Origin: an uncultured Methanosarcinales archaeon
GTDB lineage: Archaea > Nanobdellota > Nanobdellia > Woesearchaeales > DATGWN01
Assembly (NCBI GenBank): GCA_964557345.1
Contig: CAZKZU010000001.1
Coordinates: 555-64,554 of the forward strand
Length of the DNA stretch: 64,000 bases
Reading direction: 5' to 3'
Shown in pieces: positions 8,258-61,371 of this stretch. Both the position numbers and the translations under genes were made by a program. Each line of letters starts with the position of its first letter. Within the stretch, counting starts at the first letter, position 1. A model generated the notes under the pieces. The model worked only from the letters and a program-made list of their open reading frames with translations, was not told the origin of the DNA and did not search any database.

Positions 8258-8277
8258 AGTAACTTGTTTAAAATTAT

Positions 8278-8772: not shown

Positions 8773-8812
8773 TTTCCCTCAATAAAAACATAACTTTCTA
8801 TAATTAATATAA

Positions 8813-41479: not shown

Positions 41480-43168
41480 TTGATGAAGAGTAAGTTAGCG
41501 CAGACAGCTAGTGCAGCAGGAGTAGTTGGTGTTATAGCGTTAGTTTTAATTATTTATATCGTATTAATTCCTGGTATTAAAGATTCTATTAATGGAGGAA
41601 GTTCTAGTGGCGGTAGTTCTGCTGGTGGGACAACAAGCGGTTCAACCCTTGTAAATGGATCTAGACCTTTAAATTATGTTGATCAGTTTTCTTTTCCAGG
41701 TCCTGGATTAGTTGATAGTTCAACAAATGGAAGGCAAATTATTTTACCTACTCTTAATCTTAAGACAACTACAAATTCTAAAATTTTAGCAAGTGATAAT
41801 AGTTTTTATGTGTATAAAACTTTTTTTGGAAATGATAAAAGAAAATCAATTATGTTTGATATTAAAGATTCAGAGCAAATTAGTAATGCACAGATTTCCT
41901 TTTTAGTTAAGAAATCATACGGTATGATTTATATTGATTTAAACGGCGTTAGAATTTATGAAGATGAACTTAGTTCTATGAATATAAATCCAATTAAAGT
42001 AAGTTCTGCTTTATTTCAAAAAAATAATTTATTAGAAATTTATACTGACTATCCAGGAATTGTATTCTGGAGACAACATCAATATATAATTGATGACTTT
42101 AAACTTTTTGCAGACGTTACTCAAACAAGTCAACAATCAAGTTTGGTTTCTTTTGATCTTAAACCATCAGAATTTAAATCATTAAGTAGATTGAAACTTA
42201 AATTTTATCCAACTTGCACTCAATCAACTGTCGATAAATTATATGTCTCATTAAATGGGCAAACAATTTCTGAACAAGTTCCTGATTGTAATGTATTAAA
42301 TATTTATGATCTTCCTCAAATACAAACAAAAGAAGGAATGAATACTATCGAGTTTAAAACTTTAAAAGATTCGTACTTGGTTGATCAACTTTCAGTGCAG
42401 ACTGAGCTTAAAGAAAATGATGATTTAATTTATACTTTTGATTTAGATAAAAAATTATTTAATTTTAAAGAAGAAGCTAAAAACGTGTGTGGTGAATTAG
42501 ATGGCGTATGTCCTGATTCATGTACTGCTGATCAAGATAAAGATTGCTGTTTCTTAGAATATAATAAAGGATTTTGGTGTACTGCTCCAACATTAAATGA
42601 AAATGATAAATGTGTTGGTAGAGTTGATAATTATAATATTGGTTTATGTCCTTCTGGATATGAAGATAAAAGTAAAAATCCTCCAACTGATTTTGAAAAT
42701 TTATGTGGTGATGATACTGATGGTACTTGTCCATTAGGTTGTTCTAAATTTATGGATAAGGATTGTTGTTTTGAGAATACTGGATATTGGTGTTCCGACG
42801 TTGCAACTAATGGAATGGCTGGCGTTTGTGTTGATGTTGTTACAAAAGATAGTTGTTCTTTTTGTCCTAGCGGATATAAAGGAGAGGATTCAACTCCAAC
42901 TTGTGATGGTTATGAAACTAGAAATCCAATGGAAGAAGTTTCTCAATTAAAATCTACATATCAAGCTGACGTTCAACTAAGATTTGTTGATGATGGTAAT
43001 AGAAAGAAAGGTAAAATTATTGTTGATGGTAGTACTATTTCATTTACTACACTAGAAGGAACTTATACTAAAGAAATTAGTACATTAGTTCAAGATGGAA
43101 ATAATTATGTGCAGATTGTTCCTGAAAGCGATTTCAATTTAGTTAATGTTAAGGTTACTGTTAAATAG
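41480..43168 (+). CDS. Surface protein with a pilin-like (class III-type) N-terminal signal and tandem Cys-rich modules
   Basis: N-terminus MMKSKLAQTASAAGVVGVIALVLIIYIV. Repeated C..DG.CP..C....DKDCCF...G(F/Y)WC modules at ~42480-42915. Confidence 0.4.
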   Translation: MMKSKLAQTASAAGVVGVIALVLIIYIVLIPGIKDSINGGSSSGGSSAGGTTSGSTLVNGSRPLNYVDQFSFPGPGLVDSSTNGRQIILPTLNLKTTTNSKILASDNSFYVYKTFFGNDKRKSIMFDIKDSEQISNAQISFLVKKSYGMIYIDLNGVRIYEDELSSMNINPIKVSSALFQKNNLLEIYTDYPGIVFWRQHQYIIDDFKLFADVTQTSQQSSLVSFDLKPSEFKSLSRLKLKFYPTCTQSTVDKLYVSLNGQTISEQVPDCNVLNIYDLPQIQTKEGMNTIEFKTLKDSYLVDQLSVQTELKENDDLIYTFDLDKKLFNFKEEAKNVCGELDGVCPDSCTADQDKDCCFLEYNKGFWCTAPTLNENDKCVGRVDNYNIGLCPSGYEDKSKNPPTDFENLCGDDTDGTCPLGCSKFMDKDCCFENTGYWCSDVATNGMAGVCVDVVTKDSCSFCPSGYKGEDSTPTCDGYETRNPMEEVSQLKSTYQADVQLRFVDDGNRKKGKIIVDGSTISFTTLEGTYTKEISTLVQDGNNYVQIVPESDFNLVNVKVTVK

Positions 43169-43300
43169 GCTTTAACCCTAGTTATGCTTATTTAGTTGTA
43201 TTTATTTGGTTGTATTTGTTTAGTTGATTTATTTAGAATTTGATACTTTATTATAATGATGATTAAAAATTTCTTAAAAAGAGGAGAAGTATAGATTAAT

Positions 43301-45598
43301 ATGGCTAATGTTCCTGGCGCTACTGGAGGTTCTTCTACTAGTAGTCCCGTTACTCCTTCAGCTCCCATCATTCCTAAGCCGGGATTTATGGAAAGGTTTG
43401 GAAAATATATTCCTTTTGTTGTAAATAAGTCAAGAGCAGCGGCAGTAGCTGGTGTGGGAATGGCGGGTGCAGCTTGGGGATTTGGATCTAAAGTAGCTAA
43501 AAGTGTTGCTGAAAAAGCGCCTTCTATTAAATATTCAATGATGTTTATTATTGCATGTATTTTGGCAGCAGTTAATTTTGTTTATTCTTCCAATAATACT
43601 TTAAAATTAAGTCTTCTTATTGTATATTTGGTTATTTTTTATTATTCATTTCAGAATAATATTGATAATATAAATAAAGAATACGGAAAGATCATCTTTT
43701 TTTCACTGATATATATTTTTGCTCCAACACTTGGTAATTTACTTGTATCATATGTGCCTGATATTGGTATTAGAAATTTATTAGTATATTTTTTGTTTAT
43801 ATTTGGATATTTGAGTCCATTGATAATGCTTTTATCAGTTCATCATGAAGAAAATTGGTTTAGCATTACTTTAGAATTACTTTTAGTCTTTTTCTTAATA
43901 GTTTTAGTTTTAAAATTTATGGCTACAGCAGGAATTCTTCCAGAAGGAGATCAAATTAGTTCTGATCAAAAGGAGGCATTTACTTCATTATTTGTTGGGA
44001 CTTGGGACACCATTAAATCCATTCCTACTTATGTTAAAACCTCAATCAATGGAACTGCGCACGATATAAATCAATCTTGGAATCAGATTCAAGGTAATAG
44101 TTATGAGGAAGAAATTGATCAAAGTGCCCTGGTAAGTACTCTTGGTTTAAAATTAAATGATATATCTTTTTCTAATACAGATGGCGCTTATTATCAAGGA
44201 GATCCTATTGATGCATGGACCTCTATTGAAGGAAAGAGTCTTGCTCGAGTTATTAAAGTAAAAACTTCGTGTGTTGTTGATAGGAAAAGAGGTTTAACTG
44301 AAAATATAACTTGGGTTCCTAAAAAACCTGAATTTTATATCAACGATATTGGATTTGAAGATATCTCGTGTAAGTTTCCAAAAAATAAATTTACTACTGT
44401 TAGAAGTTATGAATTAGAAATGTTTGCTGATTTTGATTTTACAACTAGTTCATATTTAAGACGATATTTTATTTCTGAAGCAGATAATAATAATATGAGG
44501 AAAAATAATATAGATCCAATTGTTTATTATAATATTCCACAGACTGATGAAGAAGGTAAATATACTAACGGACCAGTTGAACTTTCAGTTGTTAAAAACA
44601 ATTTATTACAACCTTTAGCTGATCAAGGAGATACTTTTTTATTAGGAATTAAAATCGCGACAAATAGAAAACAAGGTTTTGGCGATGGTAAATTAGTTAC
44701 AATGACCAATCTTCATCTTTCTTTGCCCCCCGGATTTGAGCTTGCTAGAGATGGTTCTAGATATGACTGCGGTAATTATGAGTTCGAAGTTTATCCTGGT
44801 GCTGATTGTATTGCGGATTGTACCCGGCTTATGAAAGGAGAAAGATGTATAGCTGATTGTAATAATTATAATAATTATAGGTTAAAAGCAGCTGATTCTA
44901 ATAATATAAGTGCTGGTGTTTTACCAAAAATAAAAGAAGAAGGAAAAGAATTCGTTAAATTACCTTTGCAAATTCCATGTTATGTGAAAACTAAATCTTC
45001 GCAATCTATACTTAAAACATCCAAGTTCGTTATGGAAAATTTCAGAGCAACAGCAGATTATGATTTCGAAATTTCAGTAGCAAAACCTTTTAAGATTCAA
45101 GAAAAGCAAGGTTATGTTAATGCAGAAAAATTAGCTGATTTTTGTGGCTTTAAAACAAGTTATATCAATTCAAGTTTAATTACAAAAGATAATGTTAATA
45201 GTTTAATTTCCAGGTCTGCTGAGCTTATTAATGATAGTAAAGTTTCTTTTTCAGGTTCAACAGTTTGTTCACAATTAATCAAAGCTATTGTCGTATATAA
45301 GAATAGAAATGGTGTTGAAAATAATATGGGTTATGGAATTACTGGTATAACTGAAGAACAGCTTGATTATTCTTATCAATGGCCAACTAATTTAGCTAAT
45401 GTTGAAACACAACATCAAGATATAACTTTAACTTCAAATTATTTGAAATATGCGCTTAGTCATGAGTGTACGATTGATGGACAACAAAATTTAGATTGTG
45501 CTCTTGGTTATTATTTCTGTAATTCTGGAACTGGTAGTTGCGTTGAAACTGTAGCTCCAATTGTAATACAGATCGCTAAAGCATTAAGTACTCCTTAA
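43301..45598 (+). CDS. Large polytopic membrane protein with a Gly/Ala-rich N-terminus and a large Cys-containing extracellular domain
   Basis: 765 aa; multiple TM helices at residues ~80-215, then ~550 aa soluble domain with many Cys. Confidence 0.4.
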   Translation: MANVPGATGGSSTSSPVTPSAPIIPKPGFMERFGKYIPFVVNKSRAAAVAGVGMAGAAWGFGSKVAKSVAEKAPSIKYSMMFIIACILAAVNFVYSSNNTLKLSLLIVYLVIFYYSFQNNIDNINKEYGKIIFFSLIYIFAPTLGNLLVSYVPDIGIRNLLVYFLFIFGYLSPLIMLLSVHHEENWFSITLELLLVFFLIVLVLKFMATAGILPEGDQISSDQKEAFTSLFVGTWDTIKSIPTYVKTSINGTAHDINQSWNQIQGNSYEEEIDQSALVSTLGLKLNDISFSNTDGAYYQGDPIDAWTSIEGKSLARVIKVKTSCVVDRKRGLTENITWVPKKPEFYINDIGFEDISCKFPKNKFTTVRSYELEMFADFDFTTSSYLRRYFISEADNNNMRKNNIDPIVYYNIPQTDEEGKYTNGPVELSVVKNNLLQPLADQGDTFLLGIKIATNRKQGFGDGKLVTMTNLHLSLPPGFELARDGSRYDCGNYEFEVYPGADCIADCTRLMKGERCIADCNNYNNYRLKAADSNNISAGVLPKIKEEGKEFVKLPLQIPCYVKTKSSQSILKTSKFVMENFRATADYDFEISVAKPFKIQEKQGYVNAEKLADFCGFKTSYINSSLITKDNVNSLISRSAELINDSKVSFSGSTVCSQLIKAIVVYKNRNGVENNMGYGITGITEEQLDYSYQWPTNLANVETQHQDITLTSNYLKYALSHECTIDGQQNLDCALGYYFCNSGTGSCVETVAPIVIQIAKALSTP

Positions 45599-46895: not shown

Positions 46896-47687
46896 TTAGA
46901 TTAGTTCAAATACGTAGTTTTTAACATACAAACTATTAGTAGTTGTAGAATATGTCACTATTTGGTTTGTATCGATTTTATAGATTTCTTTATTTGTTAA
47001 TTTTACGCACGTATCTTCTGTTTTTGTTACTTTACATCTAACAAAGAAGTCTTTAGCTTGATAGATAGTTGATATGTCTGTAAAAAAATCCGATTTAGCT
47101 GTAAAGTGTGGCCAGTAATAATAGTAGCTATGATCATTATTGGTTGCCATTCTTTTTATTCTTTCGCTATGTTTTGCAATGCCGTATACATTTTCATCTT
47201 TTTCAATTAGTGTGTAATTATTAGGGGAAATAGCGTTTATTGTTTTGTCTTCTTCTTTGTTATCCATTATAATTGAGTTGTATAATTTTATTTTGTTAGG
47301 TAGTTCTAAGTTGGTTTGATTTTCCATCCACTCCAATGCATATTTAGATAAATCTAATTGATAAGTTGAATTTTGGAGAATAATTTTCCCGTCTTGTTTT
47401 GGTAGATTTTTAATGGCATAGTCTTCGAAGATTTTGCTTTTTTCATCAATTATCTTTTGTGACGCAGTTTCAATGAAGAACCTTTGTTTGTAGCTTTCTT
47501 GCTTCATTTCTGTAATTTTAGCTGCGTCTATACCAACATAAGTAGTTGAGGATATTTGTGTTGCAATTCCACTAATTGCTATGTATAAAACGAAAATAAC
47601 GAATACCATTAATAGACTTACAATTAGGACTGATGCTTTTTTTCCAGCTTTATGTATTGAACTTTTTGTATTGTTTTTTGTTGTCAT
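46896..47687 (-). CDS. Pilin-like protein (class III signal peptide)
   Basis: Signal HKAGKKA|SVLIVSLLMVFVIFVLYIAI; last gene of the minus-strand pilin-like cluster. Confidence 0.4.
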   Translation of the reverse strand: MTTKNNTKSSIHKAGKKASVLIVSLLMVFVIFVLYIAISGIATQISSTTYVGIDAAKITEMKQESYKQRFFIETASQKIIDEKSKIFEDYAIKNLPKQDGKIILQNSTYQLDLSKYALEWMENQTNLELPNKIKLYNSIIMDNKEEDKTINAISPNNYTLIEKDENVYGIAKHSERIKRMATNNDHSYYYYWPHFTAKSDFFTDISTIYQAKDFFVRCKVTKTEDTCVKLTNKEIYKIDTNQIVTYSTTTNSLYVKNYVFELI

Positions 47688-47691
47688 TTTT

Positions 47692-48189
47692 TTATTTATC
47701 GGTTTTATCTAAAAACATTAGGTATGCTCCTCTATTTTGATAGTTAACCATTAATTCAGCAGAGTATGGATTAACTATTACTATTGAAGGTATTTCTATA
47801 GCACTTTTTCTATATGGCAATATTAAATATGACTTTTTGAAAGGCATTTTATCATTAAAATTTTCATTGGTTACTATGTCCCCTTTAAACGTTACATATT
47901 CTTTTTCAGCAAAAATATTATTGCTATCATCATAATTTTTTAGTTCAATGGTGATTGGAGTATACTCATCGTAAAGAGATCTATTCATCTTTATTAGCAT
48001 TGGAATAAATGAATCTACAATGTCGTTATTGTGAGAATCTGTTATTTTTTTGTTTTTCATTTCTTCTAGTTTAGAACTTAAGAGCCAAAAACCTACTATT
48101 AGTGCTACAAGTATGATTACTCCGATTATTACATCAGTCGCAAGATCTGCTTGTGCTTTTTTTGTATTCCTTATGGTTATTGGTCTCAT
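47692..48189 (-). CDS. Pilin-like protein (class III signal peptide)
   Basis: Signal TKKA|QADLATDVIIGVIILVALIVGF. Confidence 0.4.
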   Translation of the reverse strand: MRPITIRNTKKAQADLATDVIIGVIILVALIVGFWLLSSKLEEMKNKKITDSHNNDIVDSFIPMLIKMNRSLYDEYTPITIELKNYDDSNNIFAEKEYVTFKGDIVTNENFNDKMPFKKSYLILPYRKSAIEIPSIVIVNPYSAELMVNYQNRGAYLMFLDKTDK

Positions 48190-48300
48190 GTTTTTTAGTT
48201 ATTATTTTTCTAGTTTTTTCTTTTATGTTTTTAGTTATTTTATTGTTTGTTCTAGTATTTTTTAGTGTTATTTATTGCACTCTTATTATTATTCTTATCA

Positions 48301-48792
48301 TCATATTTTCCAAAATGATATATTTATCTTTCCGGCTTTGTATCCGTTAGTATCTTTGATTAAAATAGGATAAACTTTACTAAAATCAGGCCTGTCGATA
48401 TAATTTATTGTTTTTAATGATCCATTTACCTCGTTGTTTTTATCGTAAACAGTCAGTTTTACTCCTTTATTTTCTTCCTCAGAATAAAGTCCCATGCAAT
48501 TACTAAAAGTTACGTTATTAGTTAGTTTTGATTCGTCTATTACTTTACTATATTTTATTCCTGTGAATGGATCAATGTAATTGATACAATTGAAAGCTCT
48601 TTCTTCAAAGTTAAGAACGTTTGTTCCGTATGTGTTTTTGTAATATTTGTCGTTAATGCCTGTTGCAAGGATCATTAAGAATATGAATAGAACTATAATT
48701 ATAATTATTGCAATTATATAATAACCCATTTTATTTCCTAAATCAAATGATTCAGATTGGGCCTTCTTATTTAATTTCTTGAATGGTTTCAT
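48301..48792 (-). CDS. Pilin-like protein (class III signal peptide)
   Basis: Signal NKKA|QSESFDLGNKMGYYIIAIIIIIVLFIF. Confidence 0.35.
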   Translation of the reverse strand: MKPFKKLNKKAQSESFDLGNKMGYYIIAIIIIIVLFIFLMILATGINDKYYKNTYGTNVLNFEERAFNCINYIDPFTGIKYSKVIDESKLTNNVTFSNCMGLYSEEENKGVKLTVYDKNNEVNGSLKTINYIDRPDFSKVYPILIKDTNGYKAGKINISFWKI

Positions 48793-48805
48793 TTTTTAGT
48801 TTAAT

Positions 48806-49840
48806 TTAAGGTTTATTTACGCTTGCAATTTCAGTTCCTGCGCCATTTTCTAGTATAGGGACTATTTTGATGCTATTAATAACTATATTATTGTCAGTGT
48901 ATTTTGTTTCATCTTTTACATACGGAGAATAGTATCTAACTTCGTACCATTGCTCAGGATAAAGTTCTTTTAATTGAGGCCCACTACTTGGAATCATCCT
49001 ATCGTAAAAAGAATTAATTGCATCATATCCCGCTCCTGCAACCATTATGGCTATCGCAGCCCAGCCAAATGGAGTTGATCCTAAAAAAAAGGCCACAGGT
49101 AGCATTATTAGAGGCATGTTTTTCATTGCATTTCCGATATTAGATGATTGTTCATTCCATGCAATTGTCTCATCAACTTTTTCAATAAATTCAATGTAGC
49201 CATTTCCTTCGTAGAATACATATCCTGCATATGAGAGATAGTTTTTATCTCCAGCTCCATATTTTTTAATTGATTCTTCAAAAGTTGTATCTATTTTTTT
49301 TCCTTTAGTATTATAGTTCCAAAGAGAATATTTGTTATTGACGTCTAATAATTCTGATGTTGATATTTTTGCATTTTTATCATCTAAATGTAGTTTGAAT
49401 TTATAGCACGAAAAATAGTAATTTCCGTCTTCTCTCCACCCAATCCAATTAGTAGTGCCTTGCCCGAAAGTGTTAAGTATTTTTCCTTCTCCAAATGTGC
49501 TCCAGCAACTATCGATCATATTTCCCATTTCAATTGTAACTTTTTCTTTTAATTTATCCCCGCTGTATTTTGTTAAGTTTATTTCTTTTGTTTGCGTTAT
49601 GCACATAGGGTGTTTCATAGCTCCTTTCGCTACGGCATCTAGTCCCCATATATCTTTTTGAAGTATCGATCTAGAGACTTGTAATTCTTCTTTACAGATC
49701 ATATTTTGCGTTTTTGGTTCAAGACTTAAATAGAATTTGCTGACTATTGCAATTGCAAGTATTGCGAATATGATAACTAAGAGGATTTGCATTATTGCAG
49801 TCATTTCTCCTTTTTTGTTTTTTTGGATTATTTTGGCCAT
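48806..49840 (-). CDS. Pilin-like protein with a large C-terminal domain; paralog of 52853..53803
   Basis: Signal NKKG|EMTAIMQILLVIIFAIL. The C-terminal YEVRYYSPYVKDETKY..N.IK.VP..E.GAG is shared with 52853..53803. Confidence 0.45.
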   Translation of the reverse strand: MAKIIQKNKKGEMTAIMQILLVIIFAILAIAIVSKFYLSLEPKTQNMICKEELQVSRSILQKDIWGLDAVAKGAMKHPMCITQTKEINLTKYSGDKLKEKVTIEMGNMIDSCWSTFGEGKILNTFGQGTTNWIGWREDGNYYFSCYKFKLHLDDKNAKISTSELLDVNNKYSLWNYNTKGKKIDTTFEESIKKYGAGDKNYLSYAGYVFYEGNGYIEFIEKVDETIAWNEQSSNIGNAMKNMPLIMLPVAFFLGSTPFGWAAIAIMVAGAGYDAINSFYDRMIPSSGPQLKELYPEQWYEVRYYSPYVKDETKYTDNNIVINSIKIVPILENGAGTEIASVNKP

Positions 49841-49915
49841 TTGATTTTATTATTTTGTTTTATTATTATTTTTTCTTTATAGTTTAGTTCTTAGTATTTT
49901 CATATTTTTCGTCCT

Positions 49916-50809
49916 TTAATTTAATCCTTGAACGTATTCTCCGAATTTGTTAGTTTTAGTAATAATGATTGGATTTTTCTCAAGTTGCTCTTTTGTTACT
50001 ATAATTTGAACTGATTGAAGTGCAGAGATTATTTCATCATAATTAGTGATCGGAATGCTGTTTACTTCGCCTAGTTTATTTTTTGTTGAAGTTGCCTTGA
50101 TTTGGTTGTAATAGATGTCGCCATAAGTTTTTGCTTTATCATTGTATTCTATTTCGAAAGAGTTTTCTTTTGAGTCAATTTGTATCCAAATCAGAGAACT
50201 CATATTTTCTAATGCTTTAGTGATTTGACTTTCTGTATTTATGTTTTTATTTTTTAGAAGGAAATTCATAGCACTTTTGTATTGGAGATTATTTGTGCTG
50301 TTGGTGTAGAAAAATATCTTTGTTTGTTTGAAATTATCTGTATTAGTATTAACGGCATTTCCATCATTATTTGTTATTTCTTTATCTGTTAACCTACTTT
50401 CTAAATCTTCTTTTGGTTTGTCGCTTGCATATAATTGAGTTCCTATTTTATAGAAATAAAGTTTTGAAACGTTTTGGAATTTTGCTTCTATTTGAAAGTT
50501 TTTGGGATTAGCGTATCTTGCCGCATATTTTTTATCAGTAAGTGATGGAGATTTGTCTAATTGTATAGTGTCTTTTTGAAAGTCAATATCTACACTTTTA
50601 TTGAACTGAAAAACATATTTAAAATTTCCTTCTATCGAAGGTGTTCTTTCCATAAATAAAGCTAAATTGTAGGTGTCAAAACCAATCATTTTAGCATCGC
50701 TAACTGTTACTTTGTATGCATATCCTGTGAATGTAATTATGATTAAAGCTAGAAGTACAAGTTCCATTAGGAAGAATATTTCTGCTTTTTTACTTTTGTG
50801 TTTTATCAT
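49916..50809 (-). CDS. Pilin-like protein (class III signal peptide)
   Basis: Signal SKKA|EIFFLMELVLLALIIITF (type IV pilin-like, Glu in the hydrophobic N-terminus). Confidence 0.4.
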   Translation of the reverse strand: MIKHKSKKAEIFFLMELVLLALIIITFTGYAYKVTVSDAKMIGFDTYNLALFMERTPSIEGNFKYVFQFNKSVDIDFQKDTIQLDKSPSLTDKKYAARYANPKNFQIEAKFQNVSKLYFYKIGTQLYASDKPKEDLESRLTDKEITNNDGNAVNTNTDNFKQTKIFFYTNSTNNLQYKSAMNFLLKNKNINTESQITKALENMSSLIWIQIDSKENSFEIEYNDKAKTYGDIYYNQIKATSTKNKLGEVNSIPITNYDEIISALQSVQIIVTKEQLEKNPIIITKTNKFGEYVQGLN

Positions 50810-50812
50810 TTT

Positions 50813-51409
50813 TTATGTGCACGTTTGTTGAGTTGCATTAAGGCAGAATTGGATTTTATTGTCTTCTCGTATGATGTAAACATTATCTGAGTAGATAATA
50901 CTCCTTTGACCAGGTTTTGCATTTATTTGGGTGTGTTTGTTTCCAAATACATAAAAGTCTTCTGAGTTGTAAGGAGTTTTAAATAATGAAATGGCAGATA
51001 CTCCTAATGTTTTGCAGTAAGTGAATTTATTTGATTTTGTATAAAATGCACAAATACAGGATATTTCATTGCATTTTGTGGGTTTGTATAAATTTTGCTT
51101 TGTAATGTCTGAATAGCCTAGTGTCTTATTTGATCCAATTTGAAAGATGAAGATTAAATAATTTCCATCCAAATCTTCATTAATAGGAAGAAGTTGAGTT
51201 AGATATTTTTCAGGTCTTTGATTTAGTTCTTTAATTTCATTTGCCCATTGGTCAATTACATCTTCTTCATAGTGTTTATCCATGAAGCCTGTGAATTTCA
51301 AAACGATTCCTATAAAAAATAGTATTAAGAATACAGAGCCTAAAAGTCCCATTAAAAATTTTAAAGAGATGCTTGTGCCGGCTTTTTTTGAGTGGTTGAA
51401 TTTTTGCAT
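50813..51409 (-). CDS. Pilin-like protein (class III signal peptide); start trimmed to MQKF...
   Basis: Signal SKKAG|TSISLKFLMGLLGSVFLILFFIGIVL. The ORF-track N-terminal extension to 51511 is unlikely to be real. Confidence 0.35.
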   Translation of the reverse strand: MQKFNHSKKAGTSISLKFLMGLLGSVFLILFFIGIVLKFTGFMDKHYEEDVIDQWANEIKELNQRPEKYLTQLLPINEDLDGNYLIFIFQIGSNKTLGYSDITKQNLYKPTKCNEISCICAFYTKSNKFTYCKTLGVSAISLFKTPYNSEDFYVFGNKHTQINAKPGQRSIIYSDNVYIIREDNKIQFCLNATQQTCT

Positions 51410-51702
51410 ATTTTCCTCTTTCTTTTTAGTGTGAATGGAAGTCCTAGTAAAAACATAGGTTTGAAATCTTTTGTAAGTGTGCAAGTTGCAGTTTCTTGTC
51501 CAGGGATACATTGTCCAACCCCGCCGATAGTTTGGTTTACTACATCGTTTTCTCTTCCAATGTTTTTAACGAATATGAATATTACAACGACTAATACAAG
51601 GATAAGGATAGTTGCAATTATAACAGTTGAAAGTGTTAATTCATTGGATTTTTTATTATTAATATTTACTTTTGATTTTTGGTTGTTAGTTGTTTTTGTC
51701 AT
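51361..51702 (-). CDS. Small Cys-containing pilin-like protein; paralog of 53947..54207
   Basis: Signal NKKS|NELTLSTVIIATILILVLVVVIF; short C-terminal Cys-containing domain. Confidence 0.35.
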   Translation of the reverse strand: MTKTTNNQKSKVNINNKKSNELTLSTVIIATILILVLVVVIFIFVKNIGRENDVVNQTIGGVGQCIPGQETATCTLTKDFKPMFLLGLPFTLKRKRKICKNSTTQKKPAQASL

Positions 51703-51787
51703 GGGTTATCTCCTTTTTAGCTTTGTTATTTTTACTATAGTTTTTAATTATTCTTAATTCTTATTATATTTTTAATTTTGCTTAGTA

Positions 51788-52573
51788 TTAAGGACAAATA
51801 GGTAATTTTTCAATTTCGGCAGTTTTATCTGTTTCTAAGTTTCCACCAAACCAATTATGTTCGGTGTCTATTAATATTATATTTTTGCCTGACTTAATAG
51901 TTGTTTTCCAAATGTATTTTGAACTTAACGATTTACTATCGGCGTCATAGTAATAACTTGGGTTTAATACCTGATCTGTATAAAGCGATAATGTGCTATT
52001 TGTTCCTTTTATTTCTTCAGCTACATAATTGCTTTCCATGAATTTTTTTCTGATTGTTATTATGGATAATTTACTTGGTGATTTTTGTTGCTCTGCTAGG
52101 GATAATAACTCTTGTATTGAATGTGTGTCTAGGTATCCATCTAAATCTTGGATGATGTAAACGTCGTTTATACTTACCAATTCTTTTTCAAATGAAAGAC
52201 CTTGAACTGGATCTTGATATTGGAACGATAATTTTTGATTTTCAGTTTTATTTATTTTGAAATTGTATCCTTTTTCTCCATTTCCAACTGATGGTTTTAA
52301 AGTTTGATTTATTCTGCATAAATTTGTTCCAGACGATGCAGCTCTTTCCCAAGATGCTGTCAGATTTGTAAAATATTCTTTAGATTTTAGAATAATTCCT
52401 TTTTCATCTACTTTAGTATTATTTTGATTAGTTAAATTTCCTACAGTTGAATTTACAATTGAATCAGTTAGTTTATGTGCGCCAAAAATTTGGTTTGGGC
52501 CTATCCATAGTAAAATAAATCCCACTGCAATTACTATAGTGTATCCTATTATTTTATTTAGTTCTAGTGCCAT
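51788..52573 (-). CDS. N-terminally anchored secreted protein in the pilin-like cluster
   Basis: N-terminal hydrophobic segment IIGYTIVIAVGFILLWIG, without the usual KK motif. Confidence 0.3.
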   Translation of the reverse strand: MALELNKIIGYTIVIAVGFILLWIGPNQIFGAHKLTDSIVNSTVGNLTNQNNTKVDEKGIILKSKEYFTNLTASWERAASSGTNLCRINQTLKPSVGNGEKGYNFKINKTENQKLSFQYQDPVQGLSFEKELVSINDVYIIQDLDGYLDTHSIQELLSLAEQQKSPSKLSIITIRKKFMESNYVAEEIKGTNSTLSLYTDQVLNPSYYYDADSKSLSSKYIWKTTIKSGKNIILIDTEHNWFGGNLETDKTAEIEKLPICP

Positions 52574-52586
52574 TTTTTATTGGTAT

Positions 52587-52784
52587 TTAATCGAATAATC
52601 CTGAAATTGAATCTACAATTGAATTTTCGCTTGTAAACATTGTTTTTATAAAAAATAATAGTACAATTGCTATAATAATTATTACTAGCCACATAACAAT
52701 AATTTTCATTTCCATGCCTTTTTTGCTGGTATTGAATCTAGTTAATGCGTGTTTGGATGTTGTTTGTTGTGTTTTTGTTTTCAT
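52587..52784 (-). CDS. Very small pilin-like protein (65 aa)
   Basis: Signal SKKG|MEMKIIVMWLVIIIIAIVLLFFI, with almost no mature domain. Confidence 0.3.
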   Translation of the reverse strand: MKTKTQQTTSKHALTRFNTSKKGMEMKIIVMWLVIIIIAIVLLFFIKTMFTSENSIVDSISGLFD

Positions 52785-52852
52785 TGTGTACTTCTTTTTA
52801 TTTCTCTTATATATATTGATTTTGATATGTTTATATAATAAACTTACAATGA

Positions 52853-53803
52853 TTAAACTGTGCCTGCTCCTGTAATTACATTTCCAGCGCCATCTTCTCC
52901 AACTGGAACTACTTTTATGTTGTTTAGAACATATGTGTCTTTGTATTTGTCTATATCTTTAATATAAGGGGAGTAATATCTTACTTCGTAGTATCGTTCT
53001 GCATTGATTTCAATTAGCGGAGTTCCCATGTTAGGAGTTGCTTTTTTGATAAAGTCAATTCCCCCATCTAAATGTAACCATTGGGTAAGTTTAAATGAAT
53101 CTCTTGTATCTCCCGTTCCAAATGTTAGTTTTTCTTTAGTAGTATTCATGAATTCTAAGTACCCATAACCATTATAGAATATGTAACCTGCATAGGAAAT
53201 GTAGTTTTTATCTCCTGCAATTGCCTTATTGTAGCTTTCTTCAAAACTTATTTCGATTGGTTTTTTATTTATGTTGTATTTCCAAAGTAATCCGTCATTT
53301 GGATTTGAACTATATTCTAATAGTTTAGCTGTAGTAATTTTGTAGTTTGGATCTTTAGTATGAATTTTGAATTTGTAACATGTGAAGTAATAATTATTGA
53401 AATCAGTAAATCCCCAGTTTGAGGAATCTTGAATAAAAGTATTTGGATATTTTCCTTCTCCAAATGTTTTCCAACAATTTTCTGTCATTTCTCCTATTTC
53501 AATTGCGACTTGTTTATCTAGTTCAATTCCTTCATATTTAGTTAGATCAATTCGATTAATTTTTGTTGTGCATAAAGGATCTTTTACAGAAGTTTTAGCA
53601 AATTCATCTAATGACCAGGCAATTTCTTTATTTACTGCTTTATTTGCAAGGATGATATTAGCTGAACATATTTCTTGTTGAGTTGTTGTGTCTAGTGTTT
53701 TCATTAGTTTTCCAGATACCGTCCAGACTAAAATAGCAGCAATTAAGATAAGTATGATAGACATAATTACGCTCATACTTTTTTTATTTAGTTTTTTAAC
53801 CAA
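52853..53803 (-). CDS. Pilin-like protein; paralog of 48806..49840
   Basis: Signal NKKS|MSVIMSIILILIAAILVW; shared C-terminal domain with 48806..49840. Confidence 0.45.
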   Translation of the reverse strand: MVKKLNKKSMSVIMSIILILIAAILVWTVSGKLMKTLDTTTQQEICSANIILANKAVNKEIAWSLDEFAKTSVKDPLCTTKINRIDLTKYEGIELDKQVAIEIGEMTENCWKTFGEGKYPNTFIQDSSNWGFTDFNNYYFTCYKFKIHTKDPNYKITTAKLLEYSSNPNDGLLWKYNINKKPIEISFEESYNKAIAGDKNYISYAGYIFYNGYGYLEFMNTTKEKLTFGTGDTRDSFKLTQWLHLDGGIDFIKKATPNMGTPLIEINAERYYEVRYYSPYIKDIDKYKDTYVLNNIKVVPVGEDGAGNVITGAGTV

Positions 53804-53946
53804 GAATCATCGCCGCTTTTTTTCTAATTATAAAGAAAATAATAATAAATAGAACAATAACGACTGCGATAATAATGGCAATTCCTAAAAATCCTGAATT
53901 GTCTTCTTCGCTATCGGTATCATCCATGAGTTAGTTAAGCAGCCAA

Positions 53947-54207
53947 TTAAGGAGCTAGTTTTCCGCAACAATATAGATTATTACTGCATTTCAAGTCAAG
54001 TCTATATACAGGGTATTGTTCGTTTCCAATATCTCCGCAATCTAATTTACTTGCAACACATTTTCCTTGTTGAGCTTCACAACTAGCGATATTTTTGTCT
54101 CCTGCTCCCATGTATCTTATAAAAATAAATGATAGCACTATTAATACTAAGATTACTAAAGCTGCTATTATTACTGTGTTTAATGTCATACTTTGAGATT
54201 TTTTCAT
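53947..54207 (-). CDS. Small Cys-rich pilin-like protein (first gene of cluster)
   Basis: Signal MKKS|QSMTLNTVIIAALVILVLIVL followed by a 6-Cys ~45 aa domain. Confidence 0.4.
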   Translation of the reverse strand: MKKSQSMTLNTVIIAALVILVLIVLSFIFIRYMGAGDKNIASCEAQQGKCVASKLDCGDIGNEQYPVYRLDLKCSNNLYCCGKLAP

Positions 54208-54810: not shown

Positions 54811-55065
54811 TTATTTTTTTGAGATAGTATTATTTATTTCATTAAGATTTATTTTTTCTTTGGATAATTTCTTTCTTATATTTCTAATTTCTTTAACTGA
54901 ATTTCCCGTATTTTTGATTGATCCTAATTGTTGTTCCAGAATTAGTTTTCTTAATGCATCCCTAACTACGTCAGATTTATTTGTGTAGATGCCTTTATTG
55001 ATCAGTTTGTCTATTTCATCAACTAGTCCTTGAGGTAATCTTACTTGTGTAACTGTCATTGTCAT
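54811..55065 (-). CDS. Ribbon-helix-helix (CopG/antitoxin-like) DNA-binding protein
   Basis: N-terminal TVTQVRLPQGLVDEIDKLINKG..SDVVRDALRKL, a typical RHH beta-strand plus two helices. Confidence 0.5.
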   Translation of the reverse strand: MTMTVTQVRLPQGLVDEIDKLINKGIYTNKSDVVRDALRKLILEQQLGSIKNTGNSVKEIRNIRKKLSKEKINLNEINNTISKK

Positions 55066-55186: not shown

Positions 55187-55768
55187 ATGTTAACTCCCAA
55201 CGAAAAAAAGGTGTTGAAATTGATTATATTTTCTTTTGATACTGATTATTCTATTAATCAAATAGCAAAAGAGTGTAAGTTATCTGCTAATGGGGCATAT
55301 AAAATTCTTTTAAAATATGAAAAAGAAGGTATTTTACAACATAAAAATATTGCTAATTTGAAATCCTATAAGATTGATTTTAAAAGCGATAAGACCGCCA
55401 GTATTCTCGAATTAGTTTTGATTCCAGAATTGGATAAAAAAATTAAATTGAGATTAGATGATTTGAAAGAAGTAAGAGAGGTTTCTTCTGCTTGTATTTT
55501 CTTCGGTTCTTATATTAATAAAAAGGATCCGAATGATTTGGATGTAATTTTTGTTATTGATAAAAATAAATATAAGAATTATTCCGAAAAAATTGCTGTT
55601 GCAAAAGAAATAATTCCGATTAAAGTACATGATGTTGTTCAAACCTTCGAAGATTTAAAGCAAAATATTTTAAGTAAAGACAAAATTGTTCTTAGTGCAC
55701 TAAAAGAAGGAGTTATACTTTGGGGCTATAATGTTGTAATTCAGGTGATTAAAGATGTCTATAACTGA
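55187..55768 (+). CDS. wHTH-fused minimal nucleotidyltransferase (paralog of 11798..12391)
   Basis: ACIFFGSYINKKDPNDLDVIFVID NTase motif; N-terminal wHTH-like segment. Confidence 0.6.
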   Translation: MLTPNEKKVLKLIIFSFDTDYSINQIAKECKLSANGAYKILLKYEKEGILQHKNIANLKSYKIDFKSDKTASILELVLIPELDKKIKLRLDDLKEVREVSSACIFFGSYINKKDPNDLDVIFVIDKNKYKNYSEKIAVAKEIIPIKVHDVVQTFEDLKQNILSKDKIVLSALKEGVILWGYNVVIQVIKDVYN

Positions 55769-56249
55769 CAAATTAAAAAAATGTTTTAAGGAAGGGGAAA
55801 CTGGGGCTCGTCATAAAGGAGTACGTAAGATTGCAAAATCTCCTGAACTTGCAAATCAACATTTACAAAAAGCGATACATAATTTTAAGGCAATGTCTGA
55901 GTTTCAAAAAATAGGTTATTCGGATTGGTCTGCGTCTGCTTCTTTTTACAGCCTTTATCATTGTCTTTTGGCAATACTTGCTAAAGAAGGATATGAATCT
56001 AGAAATCAAAGTTGTACATTTGCGTTAATTGAAAGTATGATTGATAAGTTATCTATTACAAAAGAAGAATTAAAAGAAATATTTGACAGAGATGTTACTG
56101 AAGATCTAGAGCATAGTAACAAAATTCTTGATATAAGAGAAACAATGCAATATTCAATCAAAACTTCTTTAAAGCAGGAAGAATTTTTAATGTTAAAAGA
56201 AAAAACAAAAATACTTTTTGACAAATTAAGAAGAGATATTGAGAAGTGA
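55755..56249 (+). CDS. HEPN-like alpha-helical partner protein (paralog of 11254..11808)
   Basis: Overlaps the upstream NTase gene by 14 nt; all-helical; no canonical Rx4-6H motif. Confidence 0.35.
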   Translation: MSITDKLKKCFKEGETGARHKGVRKIAKSPELANQHLQKAIHNFKAMSEFQKIGYSDWSASASFYSLYHCLLAILAKEGYESRNQSCTFALIESMIDKLSITKEELKEIFDRDVTEDLEHSNKILDIRETMQYSIKTSLKQEEFLMLKEKTKILFDKLRRDIEK

Positions 56250-57369: not shown

Positions 57370-58314
57370 TTAAAATAAATGTTTTATGTGCTGTTTTTCT
57401 ACATAATATATTGCATCATTTATTTTGTAATGAATTGCTTTTTTTAAGTCATTTATTATTTTCGAGTATTCAATTATATCTTTGCATTCTATGTTTATTA
57501 ATGCTTCGAAGTGACCAATAAATATTCCGAAGTAAGTTATGTTAGGATGTTTTTCTGCAAATCTTTCTAGATTTTTTAGTTCTTTTGTGTCTGTAAATGA
57601 AATTAAAACTTTGTGTCTTTGAAAACATAATTTATCTAAATTTATTGTAATTCCATACCCTGTTATTATGTTTTCTTTTTCTAGGTATTCAATTATTTTC
57701 TTAATTTTATGTACTGATATATTAGTTTTTTTAAATATTTCAACAAGTGATGCTCTCGGATATGCTATCAATGTGTTTAAAATTTTTTCTTGACCGTTAT
57801 TTAATTTTTTTATTTCGCAAATGTATTTTTTTCTAATTTTAGGAGGATTTGCGGGATTCAAATATTTTCTGTTGTAACTTATTTCTTGTACTGGTTGAAT
57901 TATTTCTTTTATTATTATATTTTGTCCGAATTTATCTTTTAATTTGGTTATTTCTTGAAAAATCTCTAATTTGTTTTTAGCAAAAAAAGAAACATATAGA
58001 TCAAAGACTTCTTCGCATTTAATTATCACTCTGATCTTTTCGTTTTTGTTTAAATAATCAATAATATTTTTTTCAATTTTTGGCGTGGTCTGATTGTATT
58101 TAATTAGAAGTTGGAGGGTTATGTTTCCTAAATATCCTAAATCGATTGCAGTATAAAATCTAGTGATAACTCCAGTTTCTATCAATTTATTAACTTTAGC
58201 AGATACTGCTTCTCTAGTTAGATGAACCTTTTTACCAATATCCGCATAAGACTCTCTTGAATTGTTGTCGAGCCTGTTAATTATCATTAAATCTTTTTGG
58301 TTCATTGTTTCCAT
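57370..58314 (-). CDS. Tandem (double) Lrp/AsnC-family transcriptional regulator
   Basis: Two wHTH+RAM halves (IINRLDNNSRESYADIGKKVHLTREAVSAKVNKLIETGVI... and ILNTLIAYPRASLVEIFKKTNISVHKIKKIIEYLEKENII...). Paralog of 28202..29170. Confidence 0.6.
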   Translation of the reverse strand: METMNQKDLMIINRLDNNSRESYADIGKKVHLTREAVSAKVNKLIETGVITRFYTAIDLGYLGNITLQLLIKYNQTTPKIEKNIIDYLNKNEKIRVIIKCEEVFDLYVSFFAKNKLEIFQEITKLKDKFGQNIIIKEIIQPVQEISYNRKYLNPANPPKIRKKYICEIKKLNNGQEKILNTLIAYPRASLVEIFKKTNISVHKIKKIIEYLEKENIITGYGITINLDKLCFQRHKVLISFTDTKELKNLERFAEKHPNITYFGIFIGHFEALINIECKDIIEYSKIINDLKKAIHYKINDAIYYVEKQHIKHLF

Positions 58315-58413: not shown

Positions 58414-58447
58414 AGTAAGGTAATTGCTTTCGAGCTTTTACCTTACT
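58414..58447. promoter_or_regulatory. Perfect 10 bp inverted repeat (AGTAAGGTAA-n14-TTACCTTACT) in the divergent promoter region between the Lrp gene and the pilin-adhesin gene, followed by a TTTTATATAA TATA-like box at 58451-58460
   Basis: Read directly from the sequence. Candidate regulator operator. Confidence 0.3.
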
Positions 58448-58536
58448 TTCTTTTATATAAACTGCACAGTACTAAAATTGCTAATAACAACTTTTATTAA
58501 CACAGTTAACTAGGGTTAGGGTATACATAAGTATTT

Positions 58537-61371
58537 ATGGAAACAAAACGATCTCAGACCGCAACAGAGTATTTAATAATTCTCGCAGTAGTTATTATTA
58601 TAGCATTAGTTGTAGTTAATACTCTTGGTGGATTTCCTGGGATTGGTGCGAATAATAATAAGAAGGTTTCGGATTATAAACTTCAATCTGATACTGTTGG
58701 GGTTGAAAGTTATTCTATTGGTGCTAATAGTTCTTTGTTTAAATTAAAGAATAATTATTTTGATACAATTACAGTAACTGAATTTAGAGTTAATCAACAA
58801 AGTAATTTAACTTGTAATTCTTCTAATACAAATCCTTCTTTGCCGATTGTTTTGAATGTTGGGCAGAGTATGATTGTTAATTGTAGTGTTGTAAATAGTT
58901 CATCTTATACAATTACTAATAGGCAAGTTCCTGTTGTTGGGATATTATTTACTGATTCAGTTACAAGTAATAGATTTGCTGGGAATGCGCAAAGTTACGG
59001 TGCTGTTTCTTTAAGTGGAACATCTGGACAAAGTGGTTGTGTTGTAACAGGTGGAAATATAACTATTGTAAACGGTTATAAGATTCATACTTTTTTAAGT
59101 AATGGTACATTAAATATAACTTCAGGTAGTTGTGTCGCCGAGGTTTTAGTTGTTGCTGGCGGTGGTGCTGGTGGTGGAAATGGTGCTCCAGGAGGAGGTG
59201 GAGGTGCTGGTGGTTTAATTTACAATAGTTCTTATAATCTTAATTTAAGTAATTATAGCATTGTAGTAGGAAATGGTGGTTTAGCAGGTTACAATGGAGG
59301 AAATTCTAGTTTTGGTAGTTTAGTTGCAATTGGTGGCGGACATGGTGCTATGTATTCTGGTTCAAGAACTACTGGAGGATCTGGTGCTGGAGGAGGTTAT
59401 TCTACTTCAGCAGGAGCTGCAGGAACTGCAGGACAAGGTAATAATGGAGGTAATGGTTTAGGAACTTCAGTATTACCTTTAGGAGCTGGTGGTGGAGGAG
59501 GAGCTGGGACTGTAGGACAAGCTGCAACTGCAAATCCTTCTGGAAAATCAGGAGATGGTGGAATTGGACTTAATTATTCTATATCCGGCGTTAATACTTA
59601 TTATGCTGGTGGTGGTGGTGCTGGAGTAACTGCACAAGGAAGTACTCAAGGATTTGGAGGACTTGGTGGTGGAGGAAATGGTACTAGCGTACAAAACGCA
59701 GTTGGAGGAAGCGCAATTGCAAATACTGGTGGCGGTGGAGGAGGATCTCATAACGCAGCAGGAGGATCAGGTGGTTCAGGAATTGTAATTGTAAGATATG
59801 CTTTGACTGGAGGTAGTATTCCTAATTGTGCAGATGGGCAAATTTTGTGTAATGGTACTATTTATTCAAATTGCTCGAATGGAAATTGGGTAAATAATGG
59901 AAATGTTGATGGACTATGCGGATATTCTGCTCCTGGAAATATTACTTCACTTAGAACTGGATTAGTAGGATATTGGCCATTGGATGGAAATGTATCTGAT
60001 TCAAGTGGAAGTAATAAGGGTGGCGCAAATAATGGTGCAACTTATACTATTTCAGGAAAAGTTGGTGGCGCATATAGTTTTGATGGAAGTACTACTTTAA
60101 TTAACACAAATTTAACAATGCCAACTACTAATTTTTCTATTTCTATTTGGTATAATACTTCAGATAACGGTGGATCTTATACTCATAGGCCATTTGGTTC
60201 AGGCGATAGTTGTTGTGGCTCACATGGATTAGATTATACTGTTAATAATGGTGGTGGACGAGCTACTGTAATATTTAGAAACAATGGTGCAAGTTATGAT
60301 TTTGATTGTGGTTCATCTCCTTCTATTAATATTTGGGAAAATTTAATACTTGCAGTTTCTTCTACGACAGGAACTACTTGTTATAGAAACTCCGTTTCTT
60401 CTGGAAGTAATTCTAATGCTAAATCTATATCTACTGGTGGATTGACTTTTAAAATGGGTTCTGCAGGAGATACAGGTGGTGTTTTTAGTGGAAAAATGGA
60501 TGAAGTTTCTGTTTGGAATCGGTCTTTGAATTCAACTGAAGTATTACAATTATATAATAATGGAACTGGTTTAAGTTTATCTTTATCTGGAGCTCAAACT
60601 CCTGTGTGTGCTGCTGGACAAACTAGTTGCAATGTTACTAATTATTTAACTTGCTCGAATGGAAGTTGGTTTAATAATGGAAATATTACTGGTTATTGTG
60701 GATATGCTCCTCCTGGAAATGTAACTCAACTTAGACAAAATTTAATTGAATATTATCATTTCGATGGAAATGTTACTGATTATAGTGGTTATGGCAGAAA
60801 TGCAAGTTGGTCAGGTGCTAGTTCTTATGTATCAGGAAAGATTGGACAATCTGCAAATTTAAACGGTTGGGATAGTTTTATTTGGTTACCCTCTAATTAT
60901 ATTCCGAATTCAAATGTTACTTTAAGTATGTGGATTAAACCTTACATTCTTCGAGATGCACTTATTGTTGAAAGAGGTCCTACTGCAGGGTGTGATGGAT
61001 TATTATTTATGTTAGGTGAAGGAGGAGATACTTCAAGTAGATTAAGATTTGATTATGGATGTTCAGATTATAGTTTGCATTCTAATAATTCTTTGACAAT
61101 AAATTCTTGGAATCATGTAGCAATAACTCAGGATGCTGCAGGATATTCTAAAATATATATCAATGGTCAATTTGAGGCAGGAGAATCTCAAGGAATTCAT
61201 ACTAATACGAACATTCAATCTTTAGGTGGAGGATATGGTGGCGGGACTTACGTTGGTACTTGGAACTTAAATGGTACTGTAGATGAATTCGCAGCATGGA
61301 ATAGAGTTTTGAATGATACAGAAATAGCGCAGATGTATAATGGCGGAAATGGATTAAGTTTAGTTCCATAA
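58537..61371 (+). CDS. Large pilin-signal surface protein with a Gly-rich repeat region and two concanavalin A-like (LamG) lectin domains
   Basis: N-terminus METKRS|QTATEYLIILAVVIIIALVVV (archaeal type IV pilin-like QTA.EYL). ~270 aa of GGGAGGG/NGG repeats. Two LamG-like ends: MDEVSVWNRSLNSTEVLQLYNNGTGLS and VDEFAAWNRVLNDTEIAQMYNGGNGLS. Confidence 0.55.
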   Translation: METKRSQTATEYLIILAVVIIIALVVVNTLGGFPGIGANNNKKVSDYKLQSDTVGVESYSIGANSSLFKLKNNYFDTITVTEFRVNQQSNLTCNSSNTNPSLPIVLNVGQSMIVNCSVVNSSSYTITNRQVPVVGILFTDSVTSNRFAGNAQSYGAVSLSGTSGQSGCVVTGGNITIVNGYKIHTFLSNGTLNITSGSCVAEVLVVAGGGAGGGNGAPGGGGGAGGLIYNSSYNLNLSNYSIVVGNGGLAGYNGGNSSFGSLVAIGGGHGAMYSGSRTTGGSGAGGGYSTSAGAAGTAGQGNNGGNGLGTSVLPLGAGGGGGAGTVGQAATANPSGKSGDGGIGLNYSISGVNTYYAGGGGAGVTAQGSTQGFGGLGGGGNGTSVQNAVGGSAIANTGGGGGGSHNAAGGSGGSGIVIVRYALTGGSIPNCADGQILCNGTIYSNCSNGNWVNNGNVDGLCGYSAPGNITSLRTGLVGYWPLDGNVSDSSGSNKGGANNGATYTISGKVGGAYSFDGSTTLINTNLTMPTTNFSISIWYNTSDNGGSYTHRPFGSGDSCCGSHGLDYTVNNGGGRATVIFRNNGASYDFDCGSSPSINIWENLILAVSSTTGTTCYRNSVSSGSNSNAKSISTGGLTFKMGSAGDTGGVFSGKMDEVSVWNRSLNSTEVLQLYNNGTGLSLSLSGAQTPVCAAGQTSCNVTNYLTCSNGSWFNNGNITGYCGYAPPGNVTQLRQNLIEYYHFDGNVTDYSGYGRNASWSGASSYVSGKIGQSANLNGWDSFIWLPSNYIPNSNVTLSMWIKPYILRDALIVERGPTAGCDGLLFMLGEGGDTSSRLRFDYGCSDYSLHSNNSLTINSWNHVAITQDAAGYSKIYINGQFEAGESQGIHTNTNIQSLGGGYGGGTYVGTWNLNGTVDEFAAWNRVLNDTEIAQMYNGGNGLSLVP

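Follow-up and report, generated by a model that had tools for sequence, protein, structure and literature searches.

Modular pilins, in which a pilin module is followed by a domain that is not specific to pilus biology, have been described from bacteria, where the class carrying a PF13385 domain is frequent (PMC8179133). The published survey of these proteins (Raynaud et al., 2021) covered bacteria only and worked with a set defined by the IPR012902 motif (PMC8179133). The closest studied example is PilC of Streptococcus sanguinis, a pilin joined to a concanavalin A (ConA)-like lectin module (PMC9934059), and the argument that such proteins serve as rare subunits at the tip has already been made for S. 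sanguinis PilB, a pilin with a vWA domain (PMC8179133). Among archaea, a type IV filament 'system 1' with two platform genes is known from methanogens and from DPANN lineages, and class III signal-peptide proteins with lectin-type domains are on record from archaeal pilus loci (bioRxiv 10.64898/2026.04.22.720090). The DPANN archaea are also rich in jelly-roll LamG proteins that have been proposed to function in host contact, and for some of them a linkage to type IV pilus loci has been described ('ARMAN' Mia14; PMC5498576). Here we analyze a gene (58537..61371, plus strand) on a stretch of 64,000 nucleotides of contig CAZKZU010000001.1, hereafter referred to as the window. Its product is probably a pilus-displayed adhesin with three binding-type domains, the archaeal version of a design known in bacteria.

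The gene corresponds to one open reading frame (ORF) in the ORF list of the window and encodes a protein of 944 amino acids that begins with METKRSQTATEYLIILAVVIIIALVVV. An identical protein (P0001) is present in the public collections, where it is annotated solely as hypothetical. An earlier reading of the same DNA, the original prediction, had proposed this ORF and a domain order of a pilin-type N-terminus, a glycine-rich stretch and two lectin-fold modules; both are borne out by the ORF list and by Pfam. The gene is organized as follows.

58537..61371, plus strand: whole gene (ORF list), a modular class III signal-peptide protein with a pilin head and three cargo domains
58537..58554, plus strand: predicted class III leader METKRS (amino acids 1-6), with putative cleavage between S6 and Q7
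58555..59016, plus strand: mature pilin module (amino acids 7-160) with the hydrophobic alpha-1 helix (7-30), a GGFPG kink, a second helix (37-51) and a beta-sandwich (54-149)
59038..59808, plus strand: Gly_rich_2 domain (amino acids 168-424), predicted tumor necrosis factor (TNF)-like beta-sandwich with a glycine-rich lattice
59827..59925, plus strand: four-Cys linker module 1 (amino acids 431-463, CADGQILCNGTIYSNCSNGNWVNNGNVDGLCGY), motif C-x6-C-x7-C-x15-C-G-Y
59944..60576, plus strand: LamG/ConA-like domain 1 (amino acids ~470-680; PF13385 match, Pfam core 524-669)
60607..60705, plus strand: four-Cys linker module 2 (amino acids 691-723), the same motif, apparent from the similarity of the two units that each consist of a Cys module and a LamG domain
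60724..61368, plus strand: LamG/ConA-like domain 2 (amino acids ~730-944; PF13385 match, Pfam core 779-931)

The N-terminus reads METKR-S, followed after the predicted cleavage site by QTATEYLIILAVVIIIALVVV, and the hydrophobic helix of the head carries QTATEYLIILAVVI. These are the features of a class III signal: a basic leader ending in K/R-[G/A/S], a hydrophobic helix of about 20 residues and the Gln at position +1 that marks the DUF361 subtype. The Class_IIIsignal profile (PF04021), a model of only 27 positions, aligned with residues 5-29 at 15.1 bits in the context of the whole protein and at 17.8 bits when the module was scanned in isolation, and 34 of the 44 family members that we aligned matched it at E ≤ 0.01. 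Invariant in this 44-sequence alignment are Q7 (+1), E11 (+5), Y12, L13, I14, L16-I20 and P34, with Q7 being preceded by a conserved K/R at position −2 and by S, A or G at position −1. No match to the bacterial prepilin N-methylation motif (IPR012902; N_methyl) was obtained in Pfam or NCBIfam.

Conservation extends well past the signal. Residues 1-163, when used as the query, recovered 51 proteins, most of them 145-180 amino acids long, from metagenome-assembled genomes (MAGs) of Nanobdellota, Woesearchaeota and Micrarchaeota, and one of these is labelled 'UPF0333 family' by JGI. Stand-alone proteins of 144-183 amino acids align with the 944-residue protein from the leader to residue ~155-160 and stop where its cargo starts; the alpha-1 segment is nearly identical between the two. 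The AlphaFold2 model of residues 1-170, with a mean predicted local distance difference test (pLDDT) score of 76, shows two helices (6-30 and 37-51) that are interrupted at the conserved GGFPG, then a beta-sandwich (54-149) and, from residue 153 onward, a disordered tail. Archaeal pilins and archaellins were the best Foldseek matches to this model, at low template-modelling (TM) scores of 0.3-0.4. By homology, residues 1-160 are a complete pilin module and more than a signal peptide. The pilin-type N-terminus of the original prediction is real, and the case for it has become stronger than it was first put, as it encompasses a whole pilin module of ~160 residues.

Single-sequence searches with the head in genome and metagenome contigs found no close relatives, and it was an alignment-based scan, with one genome per species, that succeeded. 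It yielded 56 loci, all of them from archaeal MAGs and mostly from labelled DPANN lineages, with 69 head-bearing genes; most of the encoded proteins comprise 144-183 amino acids, while seven are 285-511 amino acids long. In three loci (L022, L045, L054), the gene for a stand-alone pilin directly follows, on the same strand, three genes identified by Pfam, one for a T2SSE ATPase and two for T2SSF platform proteins, and in a fourth (L033) the head homologue lies behind an ATPase gene that was likewise confirmed by Pfam. When the fetched flanks were inspected by tblastn, an ATPase was detected in 22 and a platform gene in 26 of the 56 loci. For the secretion ATPases we relied on Pfam and tblastn, because a strict Walker-A regular expression was too narrow and found nothing. 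The gene order ATPase, two T2SSF, pilin is that of a type IV pilus operon as judged by homology, and the globular domain behind alpha-1 in our protein aligns end to end with the pilins encoded there, which places its head in a pilin family that genuinely belongs to pilus operons; we regard this genomic evidence as the decisive part. This family is large: the head profile, run against 1.84 billion cluster representatives, found 2,449 members, 1,310 of them at E ≤ 1e-10. Among the best 150 of the 2,449, 47 exceed 250 amino acids, and nearly all of these carry the module at their N-terminus.

The first of the cargo domains lies in a region (residues 166-445) with 33% Gly, within which the Gly_rich_2 profile (PF21722) spans residues 191-421 (E 4e-24), a match above its cut-off. 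A phmmer search with residues 161-450 returned a single envelope of ~260-290 residues in more than 100 proteins, each of which has one to seven copies, and an alignment of 29 domain sequences has 45 invariant columns. AlphaFold2 modelled it with confidence (pLDDT 88.5; predicted TM-score 0.87) as a beta-sandwich accompanied by long extended segments that were left unassigned by DSSP. The model matches phage receptor-binding tips, and the closest solved structures are phage tail-fibre and tail-tip proteins; in the PHROGs collection, phrog_2295 was matched with E 3e-46 over the glycine-rich region and a tail fibre assembly family with E 9e-6. No Protein Data Bank (PDB) sequence was found by HMMER with the profile of the domain, so it is the predicted fold that ties the domain to phage proteins. 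We regard the region as a defined domain with a predicted TNF-like sandwich and a glycine-rich lattice, of the type present in phage tail fibres and in ALK's glycine-rich domain. The ~270-residue glycine-rich stretch of the original prediction is therefore present; its reading as a beta-helix had to be given up, since the region did not qualify as a solenoid and both the predicted model and the fold comparison contradict it.

Laminin_G_3 (PF13385) was found twice when the two units were scanned separately: at residues 524-669 (E 5.7e-15, 56.2 bits) and 779-931 (E 9e-19, 68.5 bits). Both domains exceed the PF13385 cut-off of 27.6 bits, and the whole protein scored E 2.4e-32. They end with DEVSVWNRSL and DEFAAWNRVL, respectively. 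The two LamG/ConA-like modules with their closing signature, which the original prediction had staked against the absence of any LamG fold, were hence recovered by the profile search. Weak secondary matches of LamG domain 2 were to the receptor-binding N domain of clostridial neurotoxins and to pentaxin, which belong to the same fold class. Among PDB chains, a sequence search with the whole protein brought up only marginal matches, of LamG domain 2 to clostridial neurotoxin binding domains; with sequence searches of the PDB marginal or empty, the fold comparison is the informative one. In front of both LamG domains stands a four-Cys module of 33 residues, C-x6-C-x7-C-x15-C-G-Y, which always lies between cargo domains, has no Pfam match and was seen solely in the close relatives P0001-P0007 and P0281. 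The two units of Cys module and LamG domain share 33% identity (E 3e-39).

Several properties of the whole protein bear on its location. It contains 34 N-x-S/T sequons, as compared with 19.3 ± 3.6 expected from 2,000 shuffles (maximum 33), and 18 Cys residues, eight of which lie within the two conserved four-Cys modules. No hydrophobic segment besides alpha-1 was found in its 944 residues, neither a second transmembrane segment nor a C-terminal anchor. The window also encodes a DsbA-like thioredoxin-fold protein (928-1605, plus strand; PF13462, E 8.5e-36), in keeping with the formation of disulfides outside the cytoplasm of an organism that possesses Cys-rich surface proteins. Taken together, the sequons, the Cys content with its four-Cys modules, the sole alpha-1 segment and the DsbA-like gene fit an exported, glycosylated and disulfide-stabilized protein. 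The cytoplasmic protein with a plain transmembrane anchor against which the original prediction had been set is not what we see; the sequons, the paired four-Cys modules and the missing second transmembrane segment give the protein an extracellular character.

Relatives that are 64-79% identical over the first ~160 residues bear quite different C-terminal parts.

P0002: Gly_rich_2 and LamG
P0003, P0004, P0006, P0007: two or three LamG units
P0005: LamG and a BNR-like propeller
P0014: BNR-like propeller alone
P0015: beta-helix-like repeats
P0012: Flg_new
P0018: GLUG

Of the long family members from the profile search, ten are equipped with Lcl_C, PQQ, RCC1 or SBBP propellers or with LamG. Differently equipped heads can even be neighbours: in locus L057, the genes for P0014 (1795-3447) and P0005 (3517-5673) follow each other at a distance of 70 bp with different cargo, and three head-bearing genes are arranged in tandem in locus L001 (8004-11214). 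The combination is also found on other N-termini. Pilin-type N-termini with Gly_rich_2, with or without LamG, recur on other archaeal heads (P0032, P0051, P0073), and bacterial prepilin-like N-termini are joined to Gly_rich_2, again with or without LamG, in P0008, P0021, P0074 and P0083. Since close relatives keep the head and exchange the cargo, we propose that the family acts as a set of interchangeable pilus adhesins. As a separate observation, the leader regions of the gene studied here and of that for P0014 have two elements in common: a TAGGGTA motif and the last ~11 nucleotides upstream of the start codon (AAGTATTTATG).

A more far-reaching version of this proposal, which we put forward tentatively and consider rather doubtful at present, is that this DPANN lineage has a host-recognition cassette system in which one conserved pilin head and its conserved leader region are recombined with many binding domains, including a domain shared with phages. 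If this were true, the host range would be set or switched by the repertoire of head-plus-cargo genes, some of them in tandem, comparable to the effect of exchanging tail fibres in phages.

We read the product of the gene, with a probability of roughly 60%, as an archaeal type IV pilin of modular build that displays adhesion domains. A class III signal peptidase of the PibD/EppA type would remove METKRS from the precursor and leave Gln at +1 and Glu at +5. The alpha-1 helix and the small beta-sandwich would then form a pilin module like that of the ~150-residue stand-alone DPANN pilins, the homologues whose operon placement was seen, and the pilus machinery would take up the protein through this module with its conserved alpha-1, so that it could join the filament. 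Because a cargo of ~780 residues cannot decorate every subunit, the protein would, in analogy to the modular pilins of bacteria, most likely be a rare subunit located at or near the tip. The cargo, probably heavily N-glycosylated, would face the outside, with the phage-tail-fibre-like TNF-like/glycine-rich domain followed by the two LamG domains, which are separated by the putatively disulfide-bonded four-Cys modules. The glycine-rich tip, the LamG domains or both may bind a ligand on another cell or on a substrate, a glycan or glycoprotein of the host envelope being the most plausible target.

Several observations weigh against this interpretation. The PF04021 score of the 944-residue protein itself falls under the curated cut-off of 23.7 bits, and the Foldseek TM-scores of the head are as low as stated above. 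The 64-kb window contains neither T2SSE nor T2SSF nor a further copy of the head, as judged by tblastn and homology scans, and no prepilin peptidase was present among the ~70 window ORFs scanned; the gene is an orphan pilin fusion located away from pilus machinery in this window. Furthermore, a LamG fold does not always imply lectin function. Such folds also bind proteins and other ligands.

The missing machinery would be readily understood if the class III signal served for export and anchoring alone, with the protein acting as an envelope adhesin in the membrane or on a short stalk, like the class III sugar-binding proteins of the Sulfolobus bindosome, instead of being a subunit of a long pilus. 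Fused relatives in six other loci (L001, L002, L004, L007, L014, L047) likewise have no machinery nearby, the bindosome shows that archaeal class III substrates other than pilins exist (PMC4858521), and a cargo of ~80 kDa would be difficult to pack in a filament. Against this stand the complete globular pilin domain, kept in addition to signal and helix and homologous to those of pilus operons, and an alpha-1 nearly identical to that of stand-alone pilins, as co-assembly would require. We consider this explanation, the strongest of the alternatives, unlikely, though it has to be taken seriously. The same head speaks for a pilus-displayed adhesin and against a secreted or envelope-bound carbohydrate-active or surface (S)-layer-associated protein whose cargo captures substrate or contributes to wall structure and not to cell-cell adhesion. 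According to the description of its Pfam family, Laminin_G_3 is often found together with glycoside hydrolases and further secreted enzymes, and many proteins with Gly_rich_2 lack a pilin head and start with an ordinary signal peptide; yet neither a catalytic domain, in Pfam and in further profile and sequence scans, nor a C-terminal anchor was detected in our protein, and this possibility appears improbable.

The structural kinship of the glycine-rich domain to phage tail-fibre and tail-tip proteins, together with its PHROG matches, raised the question of a viral origin, in which the gene would code for a receptor-binding protein belonging to an integrated virus of archaea. The G+C content, which increases to 35.5% at 58-60 kb from ~29% elsewhere in the window, might then mark foreign DNA. 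However, this increase overlaps the GGN-rich coding region for the glycine-rich domain, the flanking genes are of the housekeeping type (Trm5/TYW2, IF-2B family, asparagine-synthase-like), no virus hallmark genes were seen nearby, and the pilin module at the N-terminus is a cellular one whose homologues are linked to operons. On the gene context, we rejected a viral origin as very improbable.

The adhesin gene is divergently paired with a gene for a tandem Lrp regulator, as the original prediction had stated.

57370..58314, minus strand: tandem Lrp/AsnC-type regulator of 314 amino acids, with HTH_24/HTH_AsnC at amino acids 4-51 and ~176-216 and a weak AsnC_trans_reg match at 238-291
58414..58447, no strand assigned: inverted repeat in the 222-bp divergent intergenic region, its left arm AGTAAGGTAA (58414-58423) being interrupted from its right arm TTACCTTACT (58438-58447) by a 14-nucleotide spacer

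The Lrp-type models of NCBIfam match the neighbour in two stretches, in accordance with its duplicated AsnC-type helix-turn-helix domain. What had been called a perfect palindrome in the shared promoter is in fact the interrupted repeat of 10 + 10 nucleotides; it stops 3 nucleotides before a TATA-like TTTATATA (58451-58458). An arm of at least 10 nucleotides was reached in 28 of 2000 intergenic shuffles (~1.4%) and in 4 of 288 window tiles of equal size, a modest significance, and the repeat might at best have a regulatory function. Its half-site does not recur above chance within the window, so that no regulon can be proposed, and a divergent Lrp gene is absent from the two visible paralogue loci, those of P0014 and P0006. 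Regulation of the adhesin gene by the tandem Lrp protein is possible, and it is the position of the two genes that points to it. A second tandem Lrp/AsnC-type protein of 322 amino acids (28202-29170, minus strand), 22% identical to the first, is encoded elsewhere in the window; the gene that diverges from it (29278-30117) is without a Pfam match, and the N-terminus of its product is not signal-like. A scan for sigma-70 promoters revealed no excess, and this model is irrelevant for an archaeon.

The window as a whole looks archaeal and resembles DPANN DNA, with 29% G+C, genes for an eRF1-domain protein, Trm5/TYW2 and an IF-2B family protein, and with Nanobdellota as the nearest named relatives of the head; Rfam identified one tRNA in it and nothing else. 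At a distance of 4.3 kb from the adhesin gene, the products of eleven genes (46896-54207, minus strand) start with a basic stretch ending in KK[G/A/S] that is followed by ~20 hydrophobic residues, reminiscent of a class III signal. Two paralogue pairs are found among them (48806-49840/52853-53803 and 51361-51702/53947-54207), each ~41% identical. Pfam matches none of the eleven, the 56 DPANN pilin loci contain no homologues of them, and no tie to the adhesin gene could be made; they could form a second, uncharacterized pilin-like gene set. Three probable surface proteins are encoded at 41480-45598 (plus strand) and 33323-34540 (minus strand): one of 562 amino acids that combines repeated Cys-rich motifs (…DKDCCF…) with an anchor at the N-terminus, one of 765 amino acids with multiple membrane passages and a large Cys-containing domain, neither of them with a Pfam match, and a PKD/Big_9/cadherin-like one of 405 amino acids. 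A bacterial-type prolipoprotein diacylglyceryl transferase, Lgt (37755-38507, plus strand; PF01790, E 4e-40), is present in this otherwise archaeal-looking genome, as are at least six proteins with lipobox-like signal peptides (L-[AS]-[GA]-C; starts at 22589, 23934, 25533, 31448 and 31869 on the minus strand and at 45858 on the plus strand). Further genes specify two nucleotidyltransferase and HEPN pairs in overlapping frames that resemble toxin-antitoxin systems (11254-12391, minus strand; 55187-56249, plus strand), a ribbon-helix-helix protein (54811-55065) and a type III restriction-modification-like pair (5342-10870, minus strand) that consists of a 971-residue protein with a ResIII helicase domain and a 685-residue N6/N4 DNA methylase, with an AIG2-like gene in between.

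Type IV pili and the abundant LamG proteins have both been suspected in the attachment of DPANN archaea to their hosts, and the link between them has so far mainly been one of gene neighbourhood. The protein described here and its relatives join a pilus subunit covalently to lectin-fold and phage-tip-like domains, and the same head bears many other modules. While an uncultivated organism and purely computational evidence limit what the single gene is worth in practice, the family supplies concrete, expressible candidate adhesins, and with it the 'modular pilin' principle reaches from bacteria into archaea. We consider three aspects to be new, none of which we found described in the literature searched: the covalent fusion of pilin and LamG in DPANN archaea, a glycine-rich domain of the phage-tip type as cargo, and the breadth of cargo swapping on a single head.

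In its likely mode of action, the 944-residue protein resembles a modular pilin, yet by homology its family is that of the archaeal class III/UPF0333 pilins. It shares with the bacterial modular pilins the arrangement of a pilin module followed by foreign domains (the head, then PF21722 and two PF13385), the fusion of a small N-terminal class III pilin module to bulky cargo, and the proposed role as a minor, probably tip-located adhesin. It differs from them in its archaeal-type signal (K/R-S before the Gln at +1), in the archaeal-style beta-sandwich of its globular part, in the number of its cargo domains, which is three instead of one, and in being known from sequence and models alone. Like the Epd pilins of Methanococcus, the substrates of EppA (DUF361-UPF0333; PMC3875500), it has a hydrophobic alpha-1 helix and carries Gln at +1 and Glu at +5. 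The operons of its head homologues in DPANN archaea, with their ATPase, two platform genes and pilin, match the description of 'system 1' (bioRxiv 10.64898/2026.04.22.720090). Unlike normal archaeal class III pilins, it is six times longer, lies apart from any machinery and scores below the PF04021 threshold. The counterparts of its glycine-rich domain are found in phages and receptors: Pam3 gp24 (7YPX), gp38 of Salmonella phage S16, gp33/gp29 of mycobacteriophage Bxb1 (9D93) and ALK/LTK (7LRZ). The authors of the Pam3 study attribute recognition of the host receptor to the glycine-rich domain, and they relate it to S16 gp38 (PMC9608196). In contrast to these phage tips and to ALK/LTK, the domain studied here belongs to a cellular protein and is internal, being placed between the pilin head and the LamG domains; it is presumably monomeric, whereas phage fibres are trimers. 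Finally, the linkage of LamG proteins to pili reported for DPANN archaea (PMC5498576) is one of gene neighbourhood, whereas in the protein described here the pilin module itself carries the LamG domains in covalent fusion.

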